Of a stretch of 64,000 bases of DNA, positions 7,360 through 15,110 are shown piece after piece. The stretch lies in NCBI GenBank assembly GCA_011364925.1, contig RDOA01000012.1, positions 15,048-79,047 on the forward strand, given 5' to 3'. This DNA is from Promethearchaeota archaeon (lineage in GTDB: Archaea > Asgardarchaeota > Lokiarchaeia > Sigyniarchaeales > SOKP01). The notes under the pieces are model-generated. The model had not been told where the DNA came from. It made no database searches and saw only the letters and a program-made list of their open reading frames with translations. Numbering within the stretch: the first letter of the stretch is position 1; every line of letters starts with the position of its first letter. The position numbers and the translations under genes are program-made.

Positions 7360-8463
7360 TTAATATTTTGAAGGTGTCTTCGATTTTATTTGATACTTGG
7401 GAATTTCTTTTATTTTTTGTAATTCTCTTTCAAACTCTTTTTTCTCTTTAAGAAATCTCTCCTTATCACTATCTAACTTTTGCCTTTCTTTTCTTATTGA
7501 AATCTTCTCATCTTCTATTTTTGATTTTTCTTTTTCTATATTTTTTATGTCATCGTTTAATTTTTTCAATTTCTTTTCTGAATTCTGAATTTTATGTTCT
7601 AATGAATAATAAGCGTCTTCTGCTTGAGGCACCTTTCTGTCTAATTCTTTCAGTCGAGCTTCTTGCCCTTTTTTCTTACGTTCTAGTTCTCTAACATCAT
7701 TATCAACATTTTCTTTAAATTTTCCTAGTTTTTCTTTCTTTTTCTCAATATCGCGGGCTTTAAGGTTCAAATTTTGTTTCTTGTATCGAACTTTTTCTTT
7801 TTCATCTTTTAACCTTCTTTTTTCATCTTCAATTCGATTTTTTTCATCTGTGATTTCTCTTTTCAAATTATTAATTTCTTTGTTTAAATTATCCCGTTCT
7901 CTTGTTAAGTTTTTAACTTCGTTTCTTAAGTCCATTAAATTGTTTTCTAACTTTTCAATTGTTCTTTCTAATGCGTCTTCTCTCCGTTCCATTCCAGGTA
8001 ATTTCGTTTTTATTTCTTTAATTCTTTCTTTTGCTTTTGCTTTTTCTTTTTCTATATTTCTCTTTTCGTTCTCTAGTTCTTCCCTAATGCCATCTAACTT
8101 CTCTTGATATCGCTCTAAATCAGCAGTTTTCTGATCTAGCTCTCTCTCTTTCGCATGTAGTTCGTTTTTACTACTGTTTATTTCGTTTCTCATTCTATCT
8201 AATTCCAATTTTAAGTCCTCGTATTGCTTTTGAAGTTCTCTGACTTCAAGTTCTTTTTGTTTTCTTTTTTTTTCTAATTCTTCAATATTTTCGTTATATC
8301 CGTCAATTTTATTGATTACTCGCTCCCATTCATTCTTCTCCTTATTCAATTTAATTCTTTCTTCTTTAATTTTTTTAAGAAGCTTCCCATCAACGCTTTT
8401 ATCTAACTCTTCCTCAGGAGTTTTTTCTCGGATTTGATACTTTGGAATTGGTTTTTCCTTCAT
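7360..8463 (-). CDS. Long K/E-rich coiled-coil protein with IPKYQI(R/K)xKTP motifs at both termini
   Basis: 367 aa, almost entirely heptad-like charged sequence. The N-terminus reads PIPKYQIREKTPE and the C-terminus reads EIPKYQIKSKTPSKY. Confidence 0.7.
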   Translation of the reverse strand: MKEKPIPKYQIREKTPEEELDKSVDGKLLKKIKEERIKLNKEKNEWERVINKIDGYNENIEELEKKRKQKELEVRELQKQYEDLKLELDRMRNEINSSKNELHAKERELDQKTADLERYQEKLDGIREELENEKRNIEKEKAKAKERIKEIKTKLPGMERREDALERTIEKLENNLMDLRNEVKNLTRERDNLNKEINNLKREITDEKNRIEDEKRRLKDEKEKVRYKKQNLNLKARDIEKKKEKLGKFKENVDNDVRELERKKKGQEARLKELDRKVPQAEDAYYSLEHKIQNSEKKLKKLNDDIKNIEKEKSKIEDEKISIRKERQKLDSDKERFLKEKKEFERELQKIKEIPKYQIKSKTPSKY

Positions 8464-8643: not shown

Positions 8644-9045
8644 ATGGATTTTGACGAGGAATTTGATAAGGAGTTCGACGAAGAATTGGAGGAGGATTTT
8701 GACGAAAACTTAGATGAAGATTTTGACGAACCTACTTCAAAAACTCCTCCTGACGATGTTAAAGTTAAGACTCCAGAACCTCATCTCCCTCCTGAAGGAA
8801 AAAAGATATCTGTATTTTTTCTTTCTACTATTGGTCCGGGAGAAAAAAAACAAAAATTACTAGTATATACTGGTAATAAAGTTGGAGACATTAAAGATAC
8901 TGTGGCAAATTTGTTTGCGCTAGATCCATCCGATTTCCATTTGTCTTCAGGAGGAGTGACAATGGATGAGACATCTTACCTAAGCGATTATAATGTAGAT
9001 GAAGGAGATGACATATTATTAATTCCTGCTAGCGTAGCAGGTTGA
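8644..9045 (+). CDS. Ubiquitin-like beta-grasp protein A, acidic repeat N-terminal extension, C-terminus ...LLIPASVAG-stop
   Basis: The C-terminal 80 aa (KKISVFF...DIKDTV..LF..DP.DFHLSSGGVTMDE...DYNV..GDDILLIPASVAG) has ubiquitin-like spacing and ends in Gly. It is a close paralog of 10898-11230. GGTG RBS about 9 nt upstream. Confidence 0.75.
   Translation: MDFDEEFDKEFDEELEEDFDENLDEDFDEPTSKTPPDDVKVKTPEPHLPPEGKKISVFFLSTIGPGEKKQKLLVYTGNKVGDIKDTVANLFALDPSDFHLSSGGVTMDETSYLSDYNVDEGDDILLIPASVAG
8650..8733 (+). repeat. Seven tandem tetrapeptide-coding repeats (F/L)-(D/E)-x-(E/D/N/P) inside Ubl-A
   Basis: Read as FDEE FDKE FDEE LEED FDEN LDED FDEP. At DNA level gattttgacga-like units recur every 12 nt. 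Confidence 0.8.
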
Positions 9046-9086: not shown

Positions 9087-9875
9087 CTATTTTTTTCTCG
9101 ATGGTATTAACGCGATCTCGTCATCGTCGTCAATAGAATAATCCCTTATCTGCTTTGATTCGTCTAACAATATCCCACCGGTGGATAGGAGAAAATCTTC
9201 TAAAGCATAATCAAATAGAATTCCGACTTGTTCCTTGAGGATATTTACTAATTCTGAAGTTTCAATAACGATTATTTTGGTTTTCTCGCCAGGTTCGACT
9301 AATGATCTTACATAAACGCGAATCTTATCATCCATTCCAATAGTGGTCAGTGGTGGGTTGTACTGCACTTTTTCATTAGTTCTTTCCTTATATTGCAAGA
9401 TATCTTTAATTAACCGTTTTCTTTCGCTAGGTTCAAAATATAGCATTTCTCTGATAAAAAAGATTTTATCCATCTTTGATAACCCTAGCAAATCAATTTT
9501 GTCTAATTCTTCTCTATTGAACAATGTAAAAATGTAATCGTCGAAGGTCTCAATTTTTTCAAAAGTTTCATCGCTATCTGCATATTGATCTACTAATGGC
9601 ATAGCTTCGAAGTAATCTTCGATTAGTTCGCTTGTAGTTCTATGTATTGGATTTAACTTTTTAGCGTATTTATCTTTTTTTATCTTTTTAGCGGGACTAC
9701 CCGTAGAAGATACAACGGTATAGATCGTGCCCGTTGACAATACCGCAACGCTCCCAACAGTTAGAAAGAGGAATAGAGGTAAACTTTCTATCTGCATTAA
9801 GAAAAAAATCAAATAGAGTATTGCAAAAACAATGTAAAGAGTTAAAATACTTAGAATTCTAAATTTTTTTTTCAT
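9087..9875 (-). CDS. Membrane-anchored protein with C-terminal ubiquitin-like domain (no terminal Gly)
   Basis: Two N-terminal hydrophobic helices. The C-terminal 80 aa (KIRVYVRSLVEPGEK.K....V.ILKEQVGILF...EDFLLSTGGILLDES..IRDYSIDDDDEIALIPSRKK) aligns position by position with the two free Ubls. Confidence 0.65.
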   Translation of the reverse strand: MKKKFRILSILTLYIVFAILYLIFFLMQIESLPLFLFLTVGSVAVLSTGTIYTVVSSTGSPAKKIKKDKYAKKLNPIHRTTSELIEDYFEAMPLVDQYADSDETFEKIETFDDYIFTLFNREELDKIDLLGLSKMDKIFFIREMLYFEPSERKRLIKDILQYKERTNEKVQYNPPLTTIGMDDKIRVYVRSLVEPGEKTKIIVIETSELVNILKEQVGILFDYALEDFLLSTGGILLDESKQIRDYSIDDDDEIALIPSRKK

Positions 9876-9953: not shown

Positions 9954-10628
9954 TTATATATCATAAGGAACTGATTTTCTAATATTCTCATATCTCTTGG
10001 AGTCTAATTTATATAAATCTCTTTTTTTATCTTTTTCAATTGATATTAATTTTAAATTCATTAAAATTTCAAGATATTTTTTAATTGTATTGTAATTACC
10101 TTTTAGGATAGAAGCTATTTCAGTAATTTTCAAAGAATTATCTTCACTCTTTAATAGATTTATAATCTCACGAACGATTTCTTGCTTTAAATAATAATAT
10201 ATCTCGTCTAAATCTGGATCTGAATCGTAATCAAAAATAATTCTTTGATTCTCTATTTTCTTCGACCGTGTAAATCTGAACTTTTCTAAACATGATAAAT
10301 GCCATAACGCTTGATTACTTCCAATATTTATTGCTTTCATTATTTCATTTACATTGGATGGAGTCTTTCGGATATAATTATAAATTTCATTTCGGATTGG
10401 ATGTTCAATAATGTTATTTTTCATTAATCTAGTTCCAGGGATTAGAATTCTTTTTTTAATAAGGTTTTTAATAAAGATTTCGATACTATTTCTGTTCAAT
10501 TCAGGATTAGCTCTTACCCTATTATTGATGAACACCACGATATCTTCGACAGAAAAGAACGGTTTCTTTTTTAAATATTCCTCTATTAGACCACAGACAA
10601 TAGATTGAAGGCTATCAGGCTTGCTCAT
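9954..10628 (-). CDS. Multi winged-helix (wHTH) protein, ArsR-like central module
   Basis: IRNEIYNYIRKTPSNVNEIMKAINIGSNQALWHLSCLEKFRF is an ArsR-type wHTH. A second wHTH follows (KITEIASILKGNYNTIKKYLEILMNLKLISIEKDKKRDLYKL), and there is a possible third at the N-terminus. Confidence 0.6.
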   Translation of the reverse strand: MSKPDSLQSIVCGLIEEYLKKKPFFSVEDIVVFINNRVRANPELNRNSIEIFIKNLIKKRILIPGTRLMKNNIIEHPIRNEIYNYIRKTPSNVNEIMKAINIGSNQALWHLSCLEKFRFTRSKKIENQRIIFDYDSDPDLDEIYYYLKQEIVREIINLLKSEDNSLKITEIASILKGNYNTIKKYLEILMNLKLISIEKDKKRDLYKLDSKRYENIRKSVPYDI

Positions 10629-10897: not shown

Positions 10898-11230
10898 ATG
10901 AGTTTTGAAGAAGATTTTGATGAGGAATTAGAACCAGTTAAATCTAAAACCCCATCAAGTAAAACACCCTCAACAGGTAAGAAGTTGACTTTATATTTTA
11001 TGTCAACTATTGGTCCTGGTGAAAAGAAGGAGAAGTTAACTGTCAATGATGCAAATCGGGTAAGTGATATTAAACAGACATTAGGAAATCTATTCGGTCT
11101 TGATCCAGATGAATTTCACTTATCATCTGGAGGTGTTACAATGGATGAGAATAGTCAATTAAAAGATTATAATGTCAATGACGGCGACGACATTCTTTTG
11201 ATTCCAGCAAGTACTGCGGGATTAAATTAA
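10898..11230 (+). CDS. Ubiquitin-like beta-grasp protein B (first gene of the E1-E2-JAMM-RING operon), C-terminus ...LLIPASTAG-LN
   Basis: Same core as Ubl-A (KKLTLYFMSTIGPGEKKEK...DEFHLSSGGVTMDEN..DYNVNDGDDILLIPASTAGLN). Short acidic FEED FDEE LEPV N-terminus. AAGGAAG RBS-like element upstream. Confidence 0.8.
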   Translation: MSFEEDFDEELEPVKSKTPSSKTPSTGKKLTLYFMSTIGPGEKKEKLTVNDANRVSDIKQTLGNLFGLDPDEFHLSSGGVTMDENSQLKDYNVNDGDDILLIPASTAGLN

Positions 11231-11263
11231 ATTTATATATCATTCTTTTCATAAAATTAATAA

Positions 11264-11300
11264 AAGGGCTTTAAGCCCTTCAATTTTTTTATTTTTTTGA
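11264..11300 (+). terminator. Hairpin plus oligo-T tract between Ubl-B and E1
   Basis: AAGGGCT-tta-AGCCCTT forms a perfect 7-bp stem, followed by caatttttttattttttt. Oligo-T tracts act as archaeal termination signals. Confidence 0.4.
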
Positions 11301-11309
11301 ACAATATTA

Positions 11310-12545
11310 ATGGTGATAATATTGCATAAGGATTCAGATTTTTTTGCAAAGGGATTGTCAGAAGAAGAGAGAGACTTATACGATCGTCAATTTCGTTTAG
11401 AAGGATGGTCCCAAAAATTAGTAAAAAAATCGAGAGTTTTAATCGCGGGAGTAGGAGGGTTAGGATGTGAAATTGCTAAGAATTTAGCTATGTTAGGGGT
11501 AGGCCATATAGATCTCGTGGATCTAGATATCATCGAACACTCTAACTTAAACCGCCAAGTTCTGTTTGCAGGCGCAAAGCTGGGAGAACCGAAAGCAATT
11601 GCGGCTGCAAAAAAGTTAGCTGAAATTAATCCTAATATTATTGTTAATGGATACCATTCATCGTTAGAACGATTAGAGCCCTCTCTCTACTATAATGCTG
11701 ATGTTGTTATAGGGGGACTTGATTCAATGAATGCGAGATTAAATTTAAACGCTCAATGTATTAGATTTAGGAAACCATTAGTAGATGGAGGGGTTTCTGG
11801 CTATTATGGACATGTATATACAATATTCCCATATCGGAATGCATGTTATGAATGCAATCCGCTGCCAGATGTGGCAAGTGATGAAATGGCAGCTTGTACC
11901 GTAGTTGGTATCCCTCGAAAAAGAATTCATTGCGTTTTTAAAGGAGATATGGCCTTCAAAGAAAAATTTGATAGAGATCCGAATCCTAAAAATGTAGAAG
12001 AGATAAGGTTTATTCAAAAAGTTGCAAATGAACTTGTTACAAAACACAATTTCTTTCCTGAATATACAGAAGATGATATTGTAAAAATTATTGATCGCCA
12101 TGATCCAGGAATTATAACAATAAACGCAACAATATCAGCTTTACAATCTCACGAAGCGATTAAAATCCTTCATTGGAAAAACGGTCATAAAGGATTAGGT
12201 GAACCAATTATAAATTATATGATATTTAATGCTATGACAATGAAATTATACCACATTGAAAAGAAGAGAAATCCAGAATGTTCTCAATGTGGTAAAAATG
12301 TGAGACGCGTTGTAATTAAAATGAGAGAAAACTCTCCATGCATGAATATAATTAAAATATTACAAAAAAATGGATACAAATTAGAATCGGAATTTGAACC
12401 AGTATTAACTCTTTTGGATTTTAACGATATAATTGTTCTAGATTTAGAGCAAAATCCAATTCAAAATGGTTTGAGGATTTACGAATTTCTCACGGTTGCG
12501 GGGTTTGAAGGAGGAGAAATATACGTAACCTTAAAATTTAAATAA
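11310..12545 (+). CDS. Ubiquitin-activating E1-like enzyme (ThiF/MoeB/UBA family)
   Basis: YDRQ.RL..W, the Rossmann motif VLIAGVGGLGCEIAKNLAMLGVGHIDLVDLDIIEHSNLNRQ, the zinc pairs CYEC and CSQC, a candidate catalytic Cys in MAACTVVGIP, and an extra C-terminal domain of about 80 aa. Confidence 0.9.
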   Translation: MVIILHKDSDFFAKGLSEEERDLYDRQFRLEGWSQKLVKKSRVLIAGVGGLGCEIAKNLAMLGVGHIDLVDLDIIEHSNLNRQVLFAGAKLGEPKAIAAAKKLAEINPNIIVNGYHSSLERLEPSLYYNADVVIGGLDSMNARLNLNAQCIRFRKPLVDGGVSGYYGHVYTIFPYRNACYECNPLPDVASDEMAACTVVGIPRKRIHCVFKGDMAFKEKFDRDPNPKNVEEIRFIQKVANELVTKHNFFPEYTEDDIVKIIDRHDPGIITINATISALQSHEAIKILHWKNGHKGLGEPIINYMIFNAMTMKLYHIEKKRNPECSQCGKNVRRVVIKMRENSPCMNIIKILQKNGYKLESEFEPVLTLLDFNDIIVLDLEQNPIQNGLRIYEFLTVAGFEGGEIYVTLKFK

Positions 12546-12611
12546 ATAATTTATCCAAAATATAAATCTAATAAAAAATTATAAAAAAAAACAAAAAACG
12601 GGGTTAAAGAT

Positions 12612-13139
12612 ATGAGTATAAGAAGTAGTCGAGTCTCTCGAGATTTTGCGGGACTTAAAAGATTGCTAAAGGAAGGTACCATCATCCAATTAAAGCCATT
12701 TAATCCAAAAAAAAAGAGTATTGATCACTTAGCTTTAACGGTTAAAGGTCCTAAAGGAACAGCTTACGCAGGAGGATTGTTCAGATTGGAAATGAAGTTT
12801 CCTGTTCAGTACCCTAAACAACCTCCTTTTGTGAGATTGCACACTCCTATTTGGCATCCAAATTTTTGGCCAAAACCTAATGAATATAAAGGACAAAGAA
12901 ATATTTGCTTAGCGTTAGTAGATCCGTCTCTAGTGGGGACAAAAGGTGGATGGAGCCCTTCGAAAACAGCTGTTACAGTTGTTCAAGCAATCATTGCTAT
13001 GCTCAACACGCGAGGTAAGTATGTCAATCCAACTGATGTGTTTAATAAAAAAGCAGCGATAGAAATGATAAAGGATCCTAAAATGTTTGAAAAGAAAGTG
13101 AAAAGCTTAACTAAGAAATACGCTAAGGATAAATGGTGA
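12612..13139 (+). CDS. Ubiquitin-conjugating E2-like enzyme (UBC fold)
   Basis: GPKGTAYAGGLFRLEMKFPVQYPKQPPFVRLHTPIWHPNF....NICLALV carries the canonical UBC core. The HPN motif is at 12855-12863 and the catalytic Cys codon is at 12906-12908. Confidence 0.85.
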   Translation: MSIRSSRVSRDFAGLKRLLKEGTIIQLKPFNPKKKSIDHLALTVKGPKGTAYAGGLFRLEMKFPVQYPKQPPFVRLHTPIWHPNFWPKPNEYKGQRNICLALVDPSLVGTKGGWSPSKTAVTVVQAIIAMLNTRGKYVNPTDVFNKKAAIEMIKDPKMFEKKVKSLTKKYAKDKW

Positions 13140-13146
13140 TTATGGA

Positions 13147-13956
13147 ATGGGCATTGACGAAAATAATTCTAGTTCCATTAGAGATGCGATAAAACAGAGA
13201 ATTAAAGAGAAAATTAAAAAAGAACTCCTCGAAGAAGTGTACACTGAATTACAATTAGAAGAATTACAAGAAGAAATAACCGCTGAATTTATCGATGTAA
13301 AACCGATAAATCACTCTAAATATATCAAAGCTAACCTTGAACCAATTCCAATGGAACCCGTAGTAGAAACTGTGGCTAGAAGCGATAAAATTGAAGCGAC
13401 TATAACAATCACGATAAAAGCAGTTCTTAAAATCGCCAGTCATTCTCTCAAATATGCGCATTCAAAAATACCTAGAGAACAATGGGTAGAAGTAATTGGC
13501 TTACTCGCTGGAAAGTATAATGAGTCTAACGGAATATTACATATTGAAGATGCTTATCCAATGGGGCATGGTACAGCGGTGTATGCTGAAATAAAGGATT
13601 ATAAGAATTATGTTAGAGCTTTTAAAGATATCAAGAAAAAAAAGGGCTTATTCATAGCAGGATGGTATCATAGCCACCCAAGTTATAGTTGCTTTATGTC
13701 AAGGGAAGATTTAAGCACACAGGCTAGATATCAAAAGCTTTGGGACAAAGCCGTTGCACTCGTAATCGATCCATTTTTAATTAACGGAAGATCAGTTGGA
13801 TTTGAAATTTACCGCGCAAATTTTAAAACAAAGAAATGGTTTTCAGTGCCTTTTGAAATTAAAGGGCATTTAGATATTCGCATGTTACCGGAGATTATAG
13901 AATTCATGAATCCGATAATAGAAGGGAAACCAGCCTATTTAGAATATGATGAGTAA
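13147..13956 (+). CDS. JAMM/MPN+ metalloisopeptidase (Rpn11/CSN5-like)
   Basis: The upstream Glu is in EVIGLLAG. The JAMM motif HSHPSYSCFMSREDL (H-x-H-x7-S-xx-D) lies at 13669-13710. Charged N-terminal extension of about 80 aa. Confidence 0.9.
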   Translation: MGIDENNSSSIRDAIKQRIKEKIKKELLEEVYTELQLEELQEEITAEFIDVKPINHSKYIKANLEPIPMEPVVETVARSDKIEATITITIKAVLKIASHSLKYAHSKIPREQWVEVIGLLAGKYNESNGILHIEDAYPMGHGTAVYAEIKDYKNYVRAFKDIKKKKGLFIAGWYHSHPSYSCFMSREDLSTQARYQKLWDKAVALVIDPFLINGRSVGFEIYRANFKTKKWFSVPFEIKGHLDIRMLPEIIEFMNPIIEGKPAYLEYDE

Positions 13957-13988
13957 AGAAAATAAGTTAATATTGTGATGTTTAAACC

Positions 13989-15110
13989 ATGGTTAAAAAT
14001 AAAACCTTAACAATCATTTTTGCTATTTTTTTAGTTATTGGGGTAATTCATGGTTTAATCTCTCTTTCTTTTTTAAATTTTGCAACCTGGGTTTTAATAG
14101 GATTATGGGTAATATTTACAATAAAATTATATGTAAACATAAAACGGCACCGTGAGTTTAATTCGCCACATAATACTGCATTTTTTGTCATTATTCCGTT
14201 AACTATTGGAATATTTTACTCAATTTGGGGCTATTATACAGGAATTCTAGGAGAAAATTTACTCGGTGGAGTATATTTTAGTCTATGGAGCTTAATTTTT
14301 GCTTTTCCTTTTGTGATCTATGGATCCTACTCATTATATCGATGTTTCAAGAAATACAATGTAATATATTTTGGGACCAAAGCTGTGAAAGCCCGAAAAT
14401 TGGGATACATTCTTTCTTTTTCAGTTCTTATTTTTATTTTGATTTATTGGATAAGTTTTTATAGCGCAATTGAGAGTTTTCCGTTGGATTTGAATCTCTT
14501 AATACTATTTATAGCTACAATTTTAGTCGTAATAATATTTGGTTTTACTAATTCTCGTCCATCATTACCTACTTTAACACGCGATTATATTGCAAATCGT
14601 ACTAGAACAATAAACAATTTAACTACGCCTACAACACAACGACAGCGTTTACGGACTACAAGAGTAACCGCTCCTACTCCATCTACTAGAGCAACAACAC
14701 AAACTTCAAGATCGAGAACTCATTCGTCAAGAATAACCCCTACATCACATAGACAAACTACAAGAACTAAAACAACAAAAGTTACACACACAACTACTGT
14801 TAAACCTACTTCCAAAATTCGGAATATTAATAATTATAAACCCAGAGCATCGTATTTGTCATTAGAAGATTTTAAGTGTATCTTTTGTTTTAAGCTACCA
14901 AAACTTCCTGATGACAAGGGTCGAGGAGTGGTTATATGTCCAAATTGCAGATATCCCTCCCATGCGGATGAATTCAAAGATTGGATGCGCACTTCAAATC
15001 TTTGTTCGCGTTGTAGTGCTCCTATTCCTACCAGCTTTAGGCGTAATCCCAGTATAGTAAGTGTAAAGAACTACATTATTGCTTATAAACAATTGTTAAA
15101 ACGCAAATAA
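13989..15110 (+). CDS. Polytopic membrane protein with T/R/S-rich linker and C-terminal RING-like zinc finger (putative membrane E3)
   Basis: About six hydrophobic helices (13989-14570). Low-complexity linker TTPTTQRQRLRTTRVTAPTPSTRATTQTSRSRTHSS... (about 14598-14820). The finger is CIFC-x17-CPNC-x4-H-x3-F-x2-W-x7-CSRC (14877-15014). Confidence 0.6.
   Translation: MVKNKTLTIIFAIFLVIGVIHGLISLSFLNFATWVLIGLWVIFTIKLYVNIKRHREFNSPHNTAFFVIIPLTIGIFYSIWGYYTGILGENLLGGVYFSLWSLIFAFPFVIYGSYSLYRCFKKYNVIYFGTKAVKARKLGYILSFSVLIFILIYWISFYSAIESFPLDLNLLILFIATILVVIIFGFTNSRPSLPTLTRDYIANRTRTINNLTTPTTQRQRLRTTRVTAPTPSTRATTQTSRSRTHSSRITPTSHRQTTRTKTTKVTHTTTVKPTSKIRNINNYKPRASYLSLEDFKCIFCFKLPKLPDDKGRGVVICPNCRYPSHADEFKDWMRTSNLCSRCSAPIPTSFRRNPSIVSVKNYIIAYKQLLKRK

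Follow-up and report, generated by a model that had tools for sequence, protein, structure and literature searches.

A gene on the reverse strand of contig RDOA01000012.1 of a Promethearchaeota archaeon, at positions 9087..9875 of the 64,000-nucleotide (nt) stretch analyzed here (the window), encodes a protein of 262 amino acids (aa), designated TM-Ubl, that is predicted to join a transmembrane (TM) hairpin, a helical orphan domain (the tail domain) and a ubiquitin-like (Ubl) domain that cannot be conjugated. The gene belongs to the ubiquitin locus of this AT-rich genome (approximately 31% G+C), and its tightest genetic partner is the adjacent gene for a winged helix-turn-helix (wHTH) protein, not that for the activating enzyme E1, the conjugating enzyme E2 or the JAMM protease. 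We favor, at a probability of approximately 0.55, the view that TM-Ubl serves as a cytoplasm-facing membrane adaptor or regulator that couples the wHTH partner to the ubiquitin cascade, a scheme in which we infer all of the binding steps.

The ubiquitin-like domain and its C-terminus

The gene was delineated from its open reading frame (ORF) and translation, its homologs and synteny. Its translation begins with MKKKFRIL and ends with IALIPSRKK followed by the stop codon. The parts of the gene are as follows.

9087..9875, reverse strand: TM-Ubl gene, 262 aa plus stop, encoding a predicted membrane hairpin, the tail domain and a non-conjugatable Ubl domain
9795..9854, reverse strand: predicted TM helix 1 (TM1), residues 8-27, preceded by basic MKKKFRI (hydropathy, charge and a modeled helix at residues 2-26)
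9708..9776, reverse strand: predicted TM helix 2 (TM2), residues 34-56, with the conserved motif (I/V)GSVAVLSTxTIYT
9630..9707, reverse strand: basic juxtamembrane linker, residues 57-82, net charge +7, modeled as disordered
9381..9629, reverse strand: tail domain, residues 83-165, an acidic helical orphan domain with the core motif KIDLLGLSKMDKIFFIREMLYFxxxER, followed by a short linker
9102..9326, reverse strand: ubiquitin-fold (beta-grasp) domain, residues 184-258 (BLASTP matches to Ubl-A and Ubl-B, structure model, Foldseek and Ubl tree)
9090..9101, reverse strand: conserved basic tail S-R-K-K, in place of the S-(V/T)-A-G activation tail of free Ubls

Residues 184-260 of TM-Ubl aligned without gaps in BLASTP searches with both free Ubls of the locus, Ubl-A (39% identity over 77 residues, E 8e-17) and Ubl-B (37% identity, E 9e-19). 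The Pfam profile PF00240 scored TM-Ubl at 20.4 bits, under its gathering cut-off of 25.4, whereas Ubl-B lay above it at 30.1 bits; despite the sub-threshold score, homology is secured because of the matches to the local Ubls. We obtained a structure model of the TM-Ubl monomer with AlphaFold2 (AF2) from a 45-sequence alignment. It showed a beta-beta-alpha-beta-beta-(3-10)-beta grasp with strands at residues 184-191, 198-205, 228-232 and 252-258, a helix at residues 210-220, and a predicted local distance difference test score (pLDDT) of 70-88. Foldseek matched the modeled domain to ubiquitin, ISG15, NEDD8, SUMO and the Caldiarchaeum ubiquitin 6fno_D, with target TM-scores of 0.80-0.94 and root-mean-square deviations of 1.3-2.4 Å over approximately 78 residues. 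An earlier sequence-only reading of this DNA had proposed a C-terminal beta-grasp paralogous to the free Ubls, and the BLASTP, AF2 and Foldseek results agree with it; the outcome that it had named as fatal, a region that does not fold in this way, was not what structure prediction gave.

At its C-terminus the domain departs from the free Ubls. In ubiquitin register the latter end with A-G at positions 75-76, whereas the S-R-K-K of TM-Ubl stops at position 75, one short of G76. In an alignment of 23 TM-Ubl with 31 free Ubl domains, the AG end was present in 31/31 free or fused conjugatable domains (IP.S.AG, with or without a short propeptide) and in 0/23 TM-Ubl members, and a census of C-termini from 57 genomes recovered none, TM-Ubl ending there in IP(S/K/L)R(K/I).. 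instead. The translation and these alignments show that the Ubl domain of TM-Ubl has no activatable C-terminal Gly, as had been remarked on previously, and is non-conjugatable.

Other positions of the domain are shared with the free Ubls or specific to TM-Ubl. Both groups have the PGEK loop typical of the lineage, as well as the motifs LSxGG and LIP. Group-specific substitutions, given as free Ubls to TM-Ubl, are STIGP to SLvEP, HLS to LLS, and dGD to DDD. Lysines K184, K198, K200 and K214 are conserved in TM-Ubl. A (K/S)KTP motif recurs just before the beta-grasp in free Ubls of many genomes (window positions 8644-8800 and 10898-10980; P0134, P0146, P0148 and P0158), at the place where TM-Ubl carries YNPPL.

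The tail domain, the membrane hairpin and the winged-helix partner

The region between the hydrophobic N-terminus and the Ubl domain had been described as an acidic middle of approximately 110 aa. The acidic character holds for residues 83-165, but the region is not a spacer: it comprises the basic linker (residues 57-82), a folded helical domain and a short linker. In exhaustive phmmer searches, residues ~34-165 of TM-Ubl (TM2, basic linker and helical region) also matched the C-termini of proteins of 300-1500 aa. These larger proteins consist, in order, of a signal peptide, an ectodomain (right-handed beta-helix/NosD, WD40 or beta-propeller, or concanavalin-like lectin), one TM helix with a GSxAxxSxxTxY-like pattern as in TM-Ubl, a K/R-rich stretch, and one or two copies of the tail domain, which in them is approximately 85 residues long with the core KIDxLGFxxxDKxEFIREMLxLSPKERxEI. 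A hidden Markov model of the tail domain recognized TM-Ubl with E values of 4.8e-45 and 8.2e-34, and the domain modeled alone with AF2 had a pLDDT of 77, rising to approximately 90 in the core. Among 400 Asgard genomes, 121 encode the domain at 1-13 copies per genome, nearly all of them belonging to the GTDB family of the source genome, and the domain is mostly C-terminal in proteins of 400-1500 aa. The tail domain is thus a separate mobile domain.

No counterpart of the tail domain was found in Pfam, NCBIfam, PDB sequences or PDB structures (best Foldseek E 2.5). The LG(F/L) loop had suggested a UBA- or CUE-like ubiquitin-binding three-helix bundle, a candidate that was not supported: among PDB structures, Foldseek recovered neither a UBA nor a CUE domain and nothing under E 2.5, the Pfam matches were confined to sub-threshold noise from FliG_N, and a profile search of PDB sequences yielded only a SAM/PNT domain at E 0.65.

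Two hydrophobic segments, at residues ~8-27 and ~34-56, reach Kyte-Doolittle 19-mer means of up to 2.7 and 1.8, respectively, and are separated by a gap of six residues. Charge counts showed that both flanks of the putative hairpin are basic, with MKKKFR (+4) before and KKIKKDKYAKK (+7) after it, and the AF2 model placed helices at residues 2-26 and 32-45, with pLDDT falling below 50 over residues 41-93. Hydropathy, flanking charge and structure model are all consistent with the two N-terminal TM helices of the sequence-only reading. TM2 is homologous to the single TM helix of the surface proteins with tail domains, given that phmmer alignments with them begin at residues 34-36. TM1 resembles the N-termini or signal-anchors of five receptors whose genes have a wHTH gene of the ubiquitin-locus type upstream, and it may be derived from a receptor signal-anchor. 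Given the K/R-rich flanks on both sides, the positive-inside rule would place both ends of TM-Ubl in the cytoplasm. The tail unit follows a TM helix and a positively charged stretch in the type-I proteins and should therefore be cytoplasmic, as should then the tail and Ubl domains of TM-Ubl. On these two grounds, the positive-inside rule and homology to type-I receptor tails, TM-Ubl is predicted to form a hairpin with both termini cytoplasmic.

The genes around TM-Ubl in the window are as follows.

7360-8463, reverse strand: coiled-coil gene of the ubiquitin locus
8644..9045, forward strand: Ubl-A, a free Ubl ending in IPASVAG, convergent with TM-Ubl
9954..10628, reverse strand: wHTH partner gene, 224 aa, two ArsR/SmtB-type winged helices (Pfam HTH_5 and NCBIfam ArsR/SdpR-like matches)
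10898-11230, forward strand: Ubl-B, a free Ubl ending in IPASTAG-LN
10898..15110, forward strand: Ubl-B/E1/E2/JAMM/membrane RING-like operon, divergent from the wHTH/TM-Ubl pair (Pfam and synteny)
13989-15110, forward strand: membrane RING-like gene, a six-TM protein closing the ubiquitin locus

TM-Ubl indeed lies between two free Ubl genes, as had been pointed out, and the wHTH gene lies there too, 78 nt upstream of TM-Ubl on the same strand; the stop codons of Ubl-A and TM-Ubl are 41 nt apart. Pfam identified the cascade enzymes as ThiF (E1, E 4e-58), UQ_con (E2, E 7e-25) and JAB (JAMM, E 2e-15). The wHTH protein had sub-threshold NCBIfam matches to the ArsR/SmtB and SdpR families, and nothing significant was found for it among PDB sequences.

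In a census of 57 species-representative genomes, all of them uncultured metagenome-assembled genomes (MAGs), a wHTH gene was found directly upstream of TM-Ubl and on the same strand in 55/55 loci with room to check. It was absent from all ten ubiquitin loci without TM-Ubl (10/10), and so is not a general regulator of Asgard ubiquitin operons. The invariable pairing together with the joint absence indicates that TM-Ubl and the wHTH gene constitute a two-gene module, whose coupling is strict and, within its clade, ancient.

The same pairing recurs outside the ubiquitin locus. The source genome contains exactly one other tail-domain gene, which encodes a 460-aa surface protein (C30:3342-4724). 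Its 3' end overlaps with a gene whose product is the top-scoring paralog of the ubiquitin-locus wHTH protein (223 aa, 31% identity over 206 residues, E 1.6e-25). A wHTH paralog was adjacent or fused in 19 of 20 tail-domain loci sampled from other genomes. In one of them (L050 5347-8670, G153:C27), a single ORF of 1107 aa joins an ectodomain, a tail domain and a full wHTH paralog; a hydropathy scan marked only an N-terminal hydrophobic segment in this ORF. Judged from its sequence, this fusion serves as a Rosetta stone connecting the wHTH family with the tail domain. Where receptors have a wHTH gene of the ubiquitin-locus type upstream, their tails were the closest to that of TM-Ubl in 5/5 cases. 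TM-Ubl itself shows both traits by which we define the tail-domain/wHTH module, namely the order TM helix, basic linker and tail domain, and an adjacent wHTH gene on the same strand.

A 342-aa secreted paralog of the C30 surface protein is encoded just upstream of the gene for the latter (contig C30:2699-4724, outside the window). In some receptors (P0170, P0180 and L035 3370-6315 in G170:C9), the stretch separating the TM helix from the tail domain includes a Cys-rich zinc finger of RING- or B-box-like type with the pattern F.C.VHRG...C..C...YC.RCAKVLK.KG..CW.C, and the genes for these receptors have a wHTH gene of the ubiquitin-locus type upstream. A defense-system reading of the ubiquitin locus (Bil, or CBASS Cap2/Cap3) was also considered and was rejected for lack of PADLOC support: TM-Ubl, the free Ubls, E2 and the RING protein matched none of the PADLOC models of anti-phage Ubl systems, and E1 and JAMM showed generic ThiF and JAB similarity only.

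Distribution and origin

A search of 5.8 billion proteins yielded 421 TM-Ubl homologs, nearly all of 260-264 aa. Except for a handful of obvious mislabels, those with a named source are all assigned to Lokiarchaeota or Promethearchaeota, and the UniRef name of one member is "Ubiquitin-like domain-containing protein" and nothing more. Mean column identity was 71% in a sample of 45 sequences. The TM-Ubl ORF therefore cannot be attributed to chance. In the same alignment, column identity was 0.87 for TM2, 0.86 for the Ubl domain, 0.90 for the SRKK tail and 0.81 for the tail-domain core, a distribution that points to the strongest purifying selection on these four parts.

The gene was intact in the 57 species genomes of the census, among which there was no cultured carrier. 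A convergent free Ubl gene lay downstream of TM-Ubl in 52/52 loci and a divergent Ubl-B beyond the wHTH gene in 45/49, and gene order and orientation persisted down to 44% protein identity. The synteny with ubiquitin genes on which the sequence-only reading had staked its proposal was thus present in every related genome examined.

Among the 400 Asgard genomes, full-length TM-Ubl was confined to four genera (g1, g12, g5 and g11) of one family. The ten ubiquitin loci without TM-Ubl (L109-L118) were sampled from three other families and, within the same family, from other genera. In each, a coiled-coil gene stands beside Ubl-E1-E2-JAMM-membrane RING; there is only one Ubl, and the wHTH gene is absent. 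A genome of the same order, G138, which was assembled as a single contig of 6.04 Mb, has a ubiquitin locus with neither TM-Ubl nor the wHTH gene. The coiled-coil gene divergent from Ubl-E1-E2-JAMM-membrane RING is apparently the ancestral Asgard arrangement, and because this partner is kept across four families, the coiled-coil protein encoded at 7360-8463 in the window is a long-standing neighbor of the ubiquitin operon.

A phylogeny of 55 Lokiarchaeial Ubl domains placed all 24 membrane-anchored ones in one clade (100/100), which arose among the free Ubls on a long stem of 1.15 changes per site. The tree shows a single origin of the TM-Ubl Ubl domain from the lineage's own free Ubl. One Lokiarchaeial subclade apparently acquired both genes of the module jointly, along with a second free Ubl. 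In the simplest history, a local Ubl would have been duplicated and fused behind a membrane protein, with loss of the activation motif and a burst of change followed by purifying selection.

The genus g11 genome G170 retains the core of wHTH, TM-Ubl and Ubl-B genes, with no E1, E2 or JAMM gene adjacent to it. In a locus of this genome (L030, G170:C6, 8094-11802), a gene for a Ras/Rab-like small GTPase occupies the place of Ubl-A beside TM-Ubl, and the RING-like protein encoded after Ubl-B is a short, soluble form of 222 aa that is rich in RT/ST repeats.

The survey also bears on the free Ubls of these archaea. All Lokiarchaeial free Ubls seen end in Ala-Gly (..IP.S.AG) and not in Gly-Gly, and some carry propeptides of 1-7 residues (LN, GL, GYE and GAFYFG). 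Polyubiquitin-like genes with two or three head-to-tail Ubl copies were found (P0147 and P0134), as were AG-ending Ubl domains fused behind Roadblock/LC7-like domains, a conserved CPxC zinc ribbon with coiled coil, or HerA/FtsK-like P-loop ATPase domains (P0144; P0146/P0148/P0157/P0158/P0164; P0169; L109 9891-10667; L112 7075-8829). Some of these fused genes adjoin the ubiquitin operon in genomes without TM-Ubl.

Function and relation to known systems

In the adaptor scheme that we favor, TM1 and TM2 would anchor TM-Ubl in the membrane as a hairpin whose termini are both intracellular. TM2 and the tail domain, as in the receptor-like surface proteins that are encoded beside their own wHTH paralogs, would dock the cognate wHTH protein at the membrane. 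The C-terminal Ubl domain would stand in for a receptor ectodomain as the signal-bearing part, and would be bound non-covalently by a protein that reads the cell's own Ubls, such as E1, the backside of E2, JAMM or the membrane RING protein. The module, inserted into an older Ubl-E1-E2-JAMM-RING locus, would in this way link the wHTH protein to the state of the cascade; this protein might be held or released so as to control the divergent ubiquitin operon or might be presented for ubiquitylation. That the tail domain binds the wHTH protein, which protein recognizes the Ubl domain, and what regulation would result are matters of inference.

Several observations weigh against this scheme. The tail domain has no relative of known fold, so that the binding function assigned to it derives from gene neighborhood and one fusion. 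The match between tail and wHTH subtypes is only partial among pairs of the C30 type. A search for a shared operator-like repeat in the three AT-rich stretches of intergenic DNA that adjoin the wHTH, TM-Ubl and Ubl genes revealed only weak AT-rich inverted repeats. Given that the enzyme genes are not adjacent in G170, the link of TM-Ubl to the enzymes is looser than that to the wHTH protein and the Ubls. TM1 could, moreover, be a cleaved signal peptide and not a stable helix, although the Ubl domain would be cytoplasmic either way.

A wider form of the idea, which we hold only tentatively, is that one family of the Lokiarchaeia may have an undescribed type of transmembrane signaling in which receptor-like surface proteins, through the cytoplasmic tail domain, hold or control cognate wHTH factors; each tandem winged-helix factor would have a receptor of its own, in some cases within one chain. 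One of these pairs would then have been taken over by the ubiquitin operon as a feedback switch for the state of the ubiquitin system. A dead-end duplicate of the cellular ubiquitin would have replaced the ectodomain, and the switch would feed back on transcription of the operon or offer the factor for ubiquitylation.

Other functions can be envisaged for an anchored Ubl. TM-Ubl could be a pure recruitment handle that brings E1, E2, JAMM, a receptor of the proteasome or Cdc48 type, or a membrane RING ligase to the membrane, with the wHTH protein being an ordinary regulator of the operon. The strong constraint on the Ubl fold and the SRKK tail and the six-TM RING-like protein that ends the same locus fit such a role, and eukaryotes provide well-established cases of Ubl adaptors anchored at membranes: MUBs bind the backside of E2 and block formation of E2~Ub (PMC4996978), and UBL3 is required for the membrane RING ligase MARCH1 (PMC9001657). 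We nevertheless consider this explanation unlikely, given that it accounts neither for the unit of TM2 and tail domain shared with receptors that have their own wHTH paralogs nor for the absence of the wHTH gene from the ten ubiquitin loci in which TM-Ubl is missing. Across Asgard lineages, the enzymes and the membrane RING protein also occur where there is no TM-Ubl, which therefore is not a core cofactor of theirs, and the separation of the enzyme genes in G170 is a further difficulty. Inhibition of E2~Ub formation by MUBs (PMC4996978) is also the precedent for a decoy, in which the dead-end Ubl would fill the Ubl-binding site of E1, E2 or JAMM and damp the cascade near the membrane. A tail that is nearly full length and conserved, yet cannot be adenylated, would suit this purpose. 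The group-specific substitutions at conserved Ubl positions, however, argue against simple mimicry, and the tail domain and the wHTH pairing would have no explanation; we judge a decoy to be rather improbable.

Only slightly better placed than the decoy, and still improbable, is a role as "ubiquitin in trans" or as an anchored acceptor, in which TM-Ubl would be a membrane protein with a permanent Ubl tag. It would mark membrane patches, or co-assembling surface proteins with tail domains, for turnover or sorting by machinery of the ESCRT (endosomal sorting complex required for transport) type or by proteolytic machinery, possibly with chains extended on its conserved lysines. Such lysines are present in the Ubl domain, co-assembly with the surface proteins is conceivable through the common TM2 and tail domain, and Asgard UEV/Vps23 proteins bind ubiquitin (PMC9192718; bioRxiv 10.1101/2023.07.25.550441). 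There are, however, no ESCRT genes in the locus, and the ubiquitin and ESCRT regions of Lokiarchaeota have been reported to be separate (PMC9192718). The source genome, with one other tail-domain protein only, would also offer little cargo, and the one-to-one pairing with the wHTH gene would go unexplained. We give next to no credence to the notion that TM-Ubl is functionless, whether as a decaying duplicate or as a mis-called ORF: only the lost activation motif speaks for it, and it is contradicted by the 421 homologs of constant length, the 71% column identity and the intact gene in 57 species genomes.

HERP/Usa1 and TMUB1/2 are membrane proteins of endoplasmic reticulum-associated degradation (ERAD) that partner a multi-spanning RING ligase, Hrd1 or gp78. 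HERP and Usa1 work in the Hrd1 complex, and members of the HERP/Usa1/TMUB1 group combine an integral UBL with a membrane hairpin whose two ends are both cytosolic. TM-Ubl would resemble these proteins in its non-cleaved integral UBL and in its predicted hairpin, and a gene for a six-TM RING-like protein is co-located with it in the same locus. In HERP and Usa1, however, the UBL is N-terminal, whereas that of TM-Ubl is C-terminal; beyond the ubiquitin fold that such domains generally share there is no sequence homology, ERAD has no counterpart of the wHTH partner, and TM-Ubl is lineage-specific, unlike the membrane RING protein of its locus, which is widespread without it. MUB/UBL3 proteins share with TM-Ubl a ubiquitin fold that lacks a C-terminal Gly-Gly and tethering at the cytoplasmic face of the membrane (predicted in the case of TM-Ubl). 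Their anchor is a C-terminal prenylated CAAX motif, whereas that of TM-Ubl is the N-terminal TM hairpin; the C-terminal region of TM-Ubl, ending in IPSRKK, contains no Cys. No specific sequence relationship between the two was detectable, and TM-Ubl has in addition the tail domain and the obligate wHTH partner. The sequence-only reading had offered Rad23, Herp and UBX-type proteins as eukaryotic analogs. Of these, Herp remains apt, with HERP/Usa1 and MUB/UBL3 being the closer analogs, whereas Rad23 and UBX proteins are less close.

SdpI of Bacillus subtilis sequesters the ArsR-type autorepressor SdpR at the membrane. The pairing of a membrane protein with a wHTH repressor in this system, and more loosely in BlaR1-BlaI and Mlc-PtsG, is reminiscent of TM-Ubl and its ArsR-type wHTH neighbor. 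TM-Ubl is not homologous to SdpI, however, and the wHTH protein here has two winged helices. The input to SdpI-SdpR is an extracellular toxin, whereas that to TM-Ubl would be its Ubl domain, and sequestration is proposed here by analogy only. In sequence the Ubl domain is closest to the lineage's own free Ubls, and a further homolog is the ubiquitin of Caldiarchaeum and Asgard archaea, which is encoded in E1-E2-RING-JAMM operons (PMC5654768). TM-Ubl shares with them a homologous beta-grasp, at the 37-39% identity to Ubl-A and Ubl-B given above, and differs from them in the absence of an AG or GG end, in its fusion behind a membrane anchor and tail domain, and in its long stem branch.

Full-text literature searches recovered no description of a membrane-anchored archaeal Ubl, of the tail domain or of receptor-wHTH pairs, in keeping with the earlier remark that no description of an Ubl tethered to the archaeal membrane had been seen; what they returned instead were accounts of Asgard and Caldiarchaeum ubiquitin cascades and of links between ubiquitin and ESCRT (PMC5654768, PMC9192718, bioRxiv 10.1101/2023.07.25.550441). 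By analogy, TM-Ubl can be regarded as a lineage-specific take on the theme of the membrane-anchored UBL adaptor, with MUB/UBL3, HERP/Usa1 and TMUB1 as its functional analogs; it is a member of none of these families.

Given that all of the carriers found are uncultured MAGs, tests of these proposals will have to be biochemical and heterologous. The soluble part of TM-Ubl, the wHTH protein and the cascade enzymes are small and expressible in Escherichia coli, and so offer a tractable route to the wiring of an archaeal ubiquitin system with membranes and gene regulation. Integral Ubl domains of the docking type are usually viewed as a eukaryotic elaboration of the ubiquitin system. Here, an archaeon with a eukaryote-type E1-E2-RING-JAMM cascade appears to have built a membrane-placed integral Ubl from its own ubiquitin. 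Because the origin of TM-Ubl is lineage-specific and recent, it would represent a parallel invention and not an ancestor of HERP or MUB. The new orphan tail domain and the family of receptor-plus-wHTH gene pairs may, in turn, belong to a signaling system that is peculiar to these Asgard archaea.

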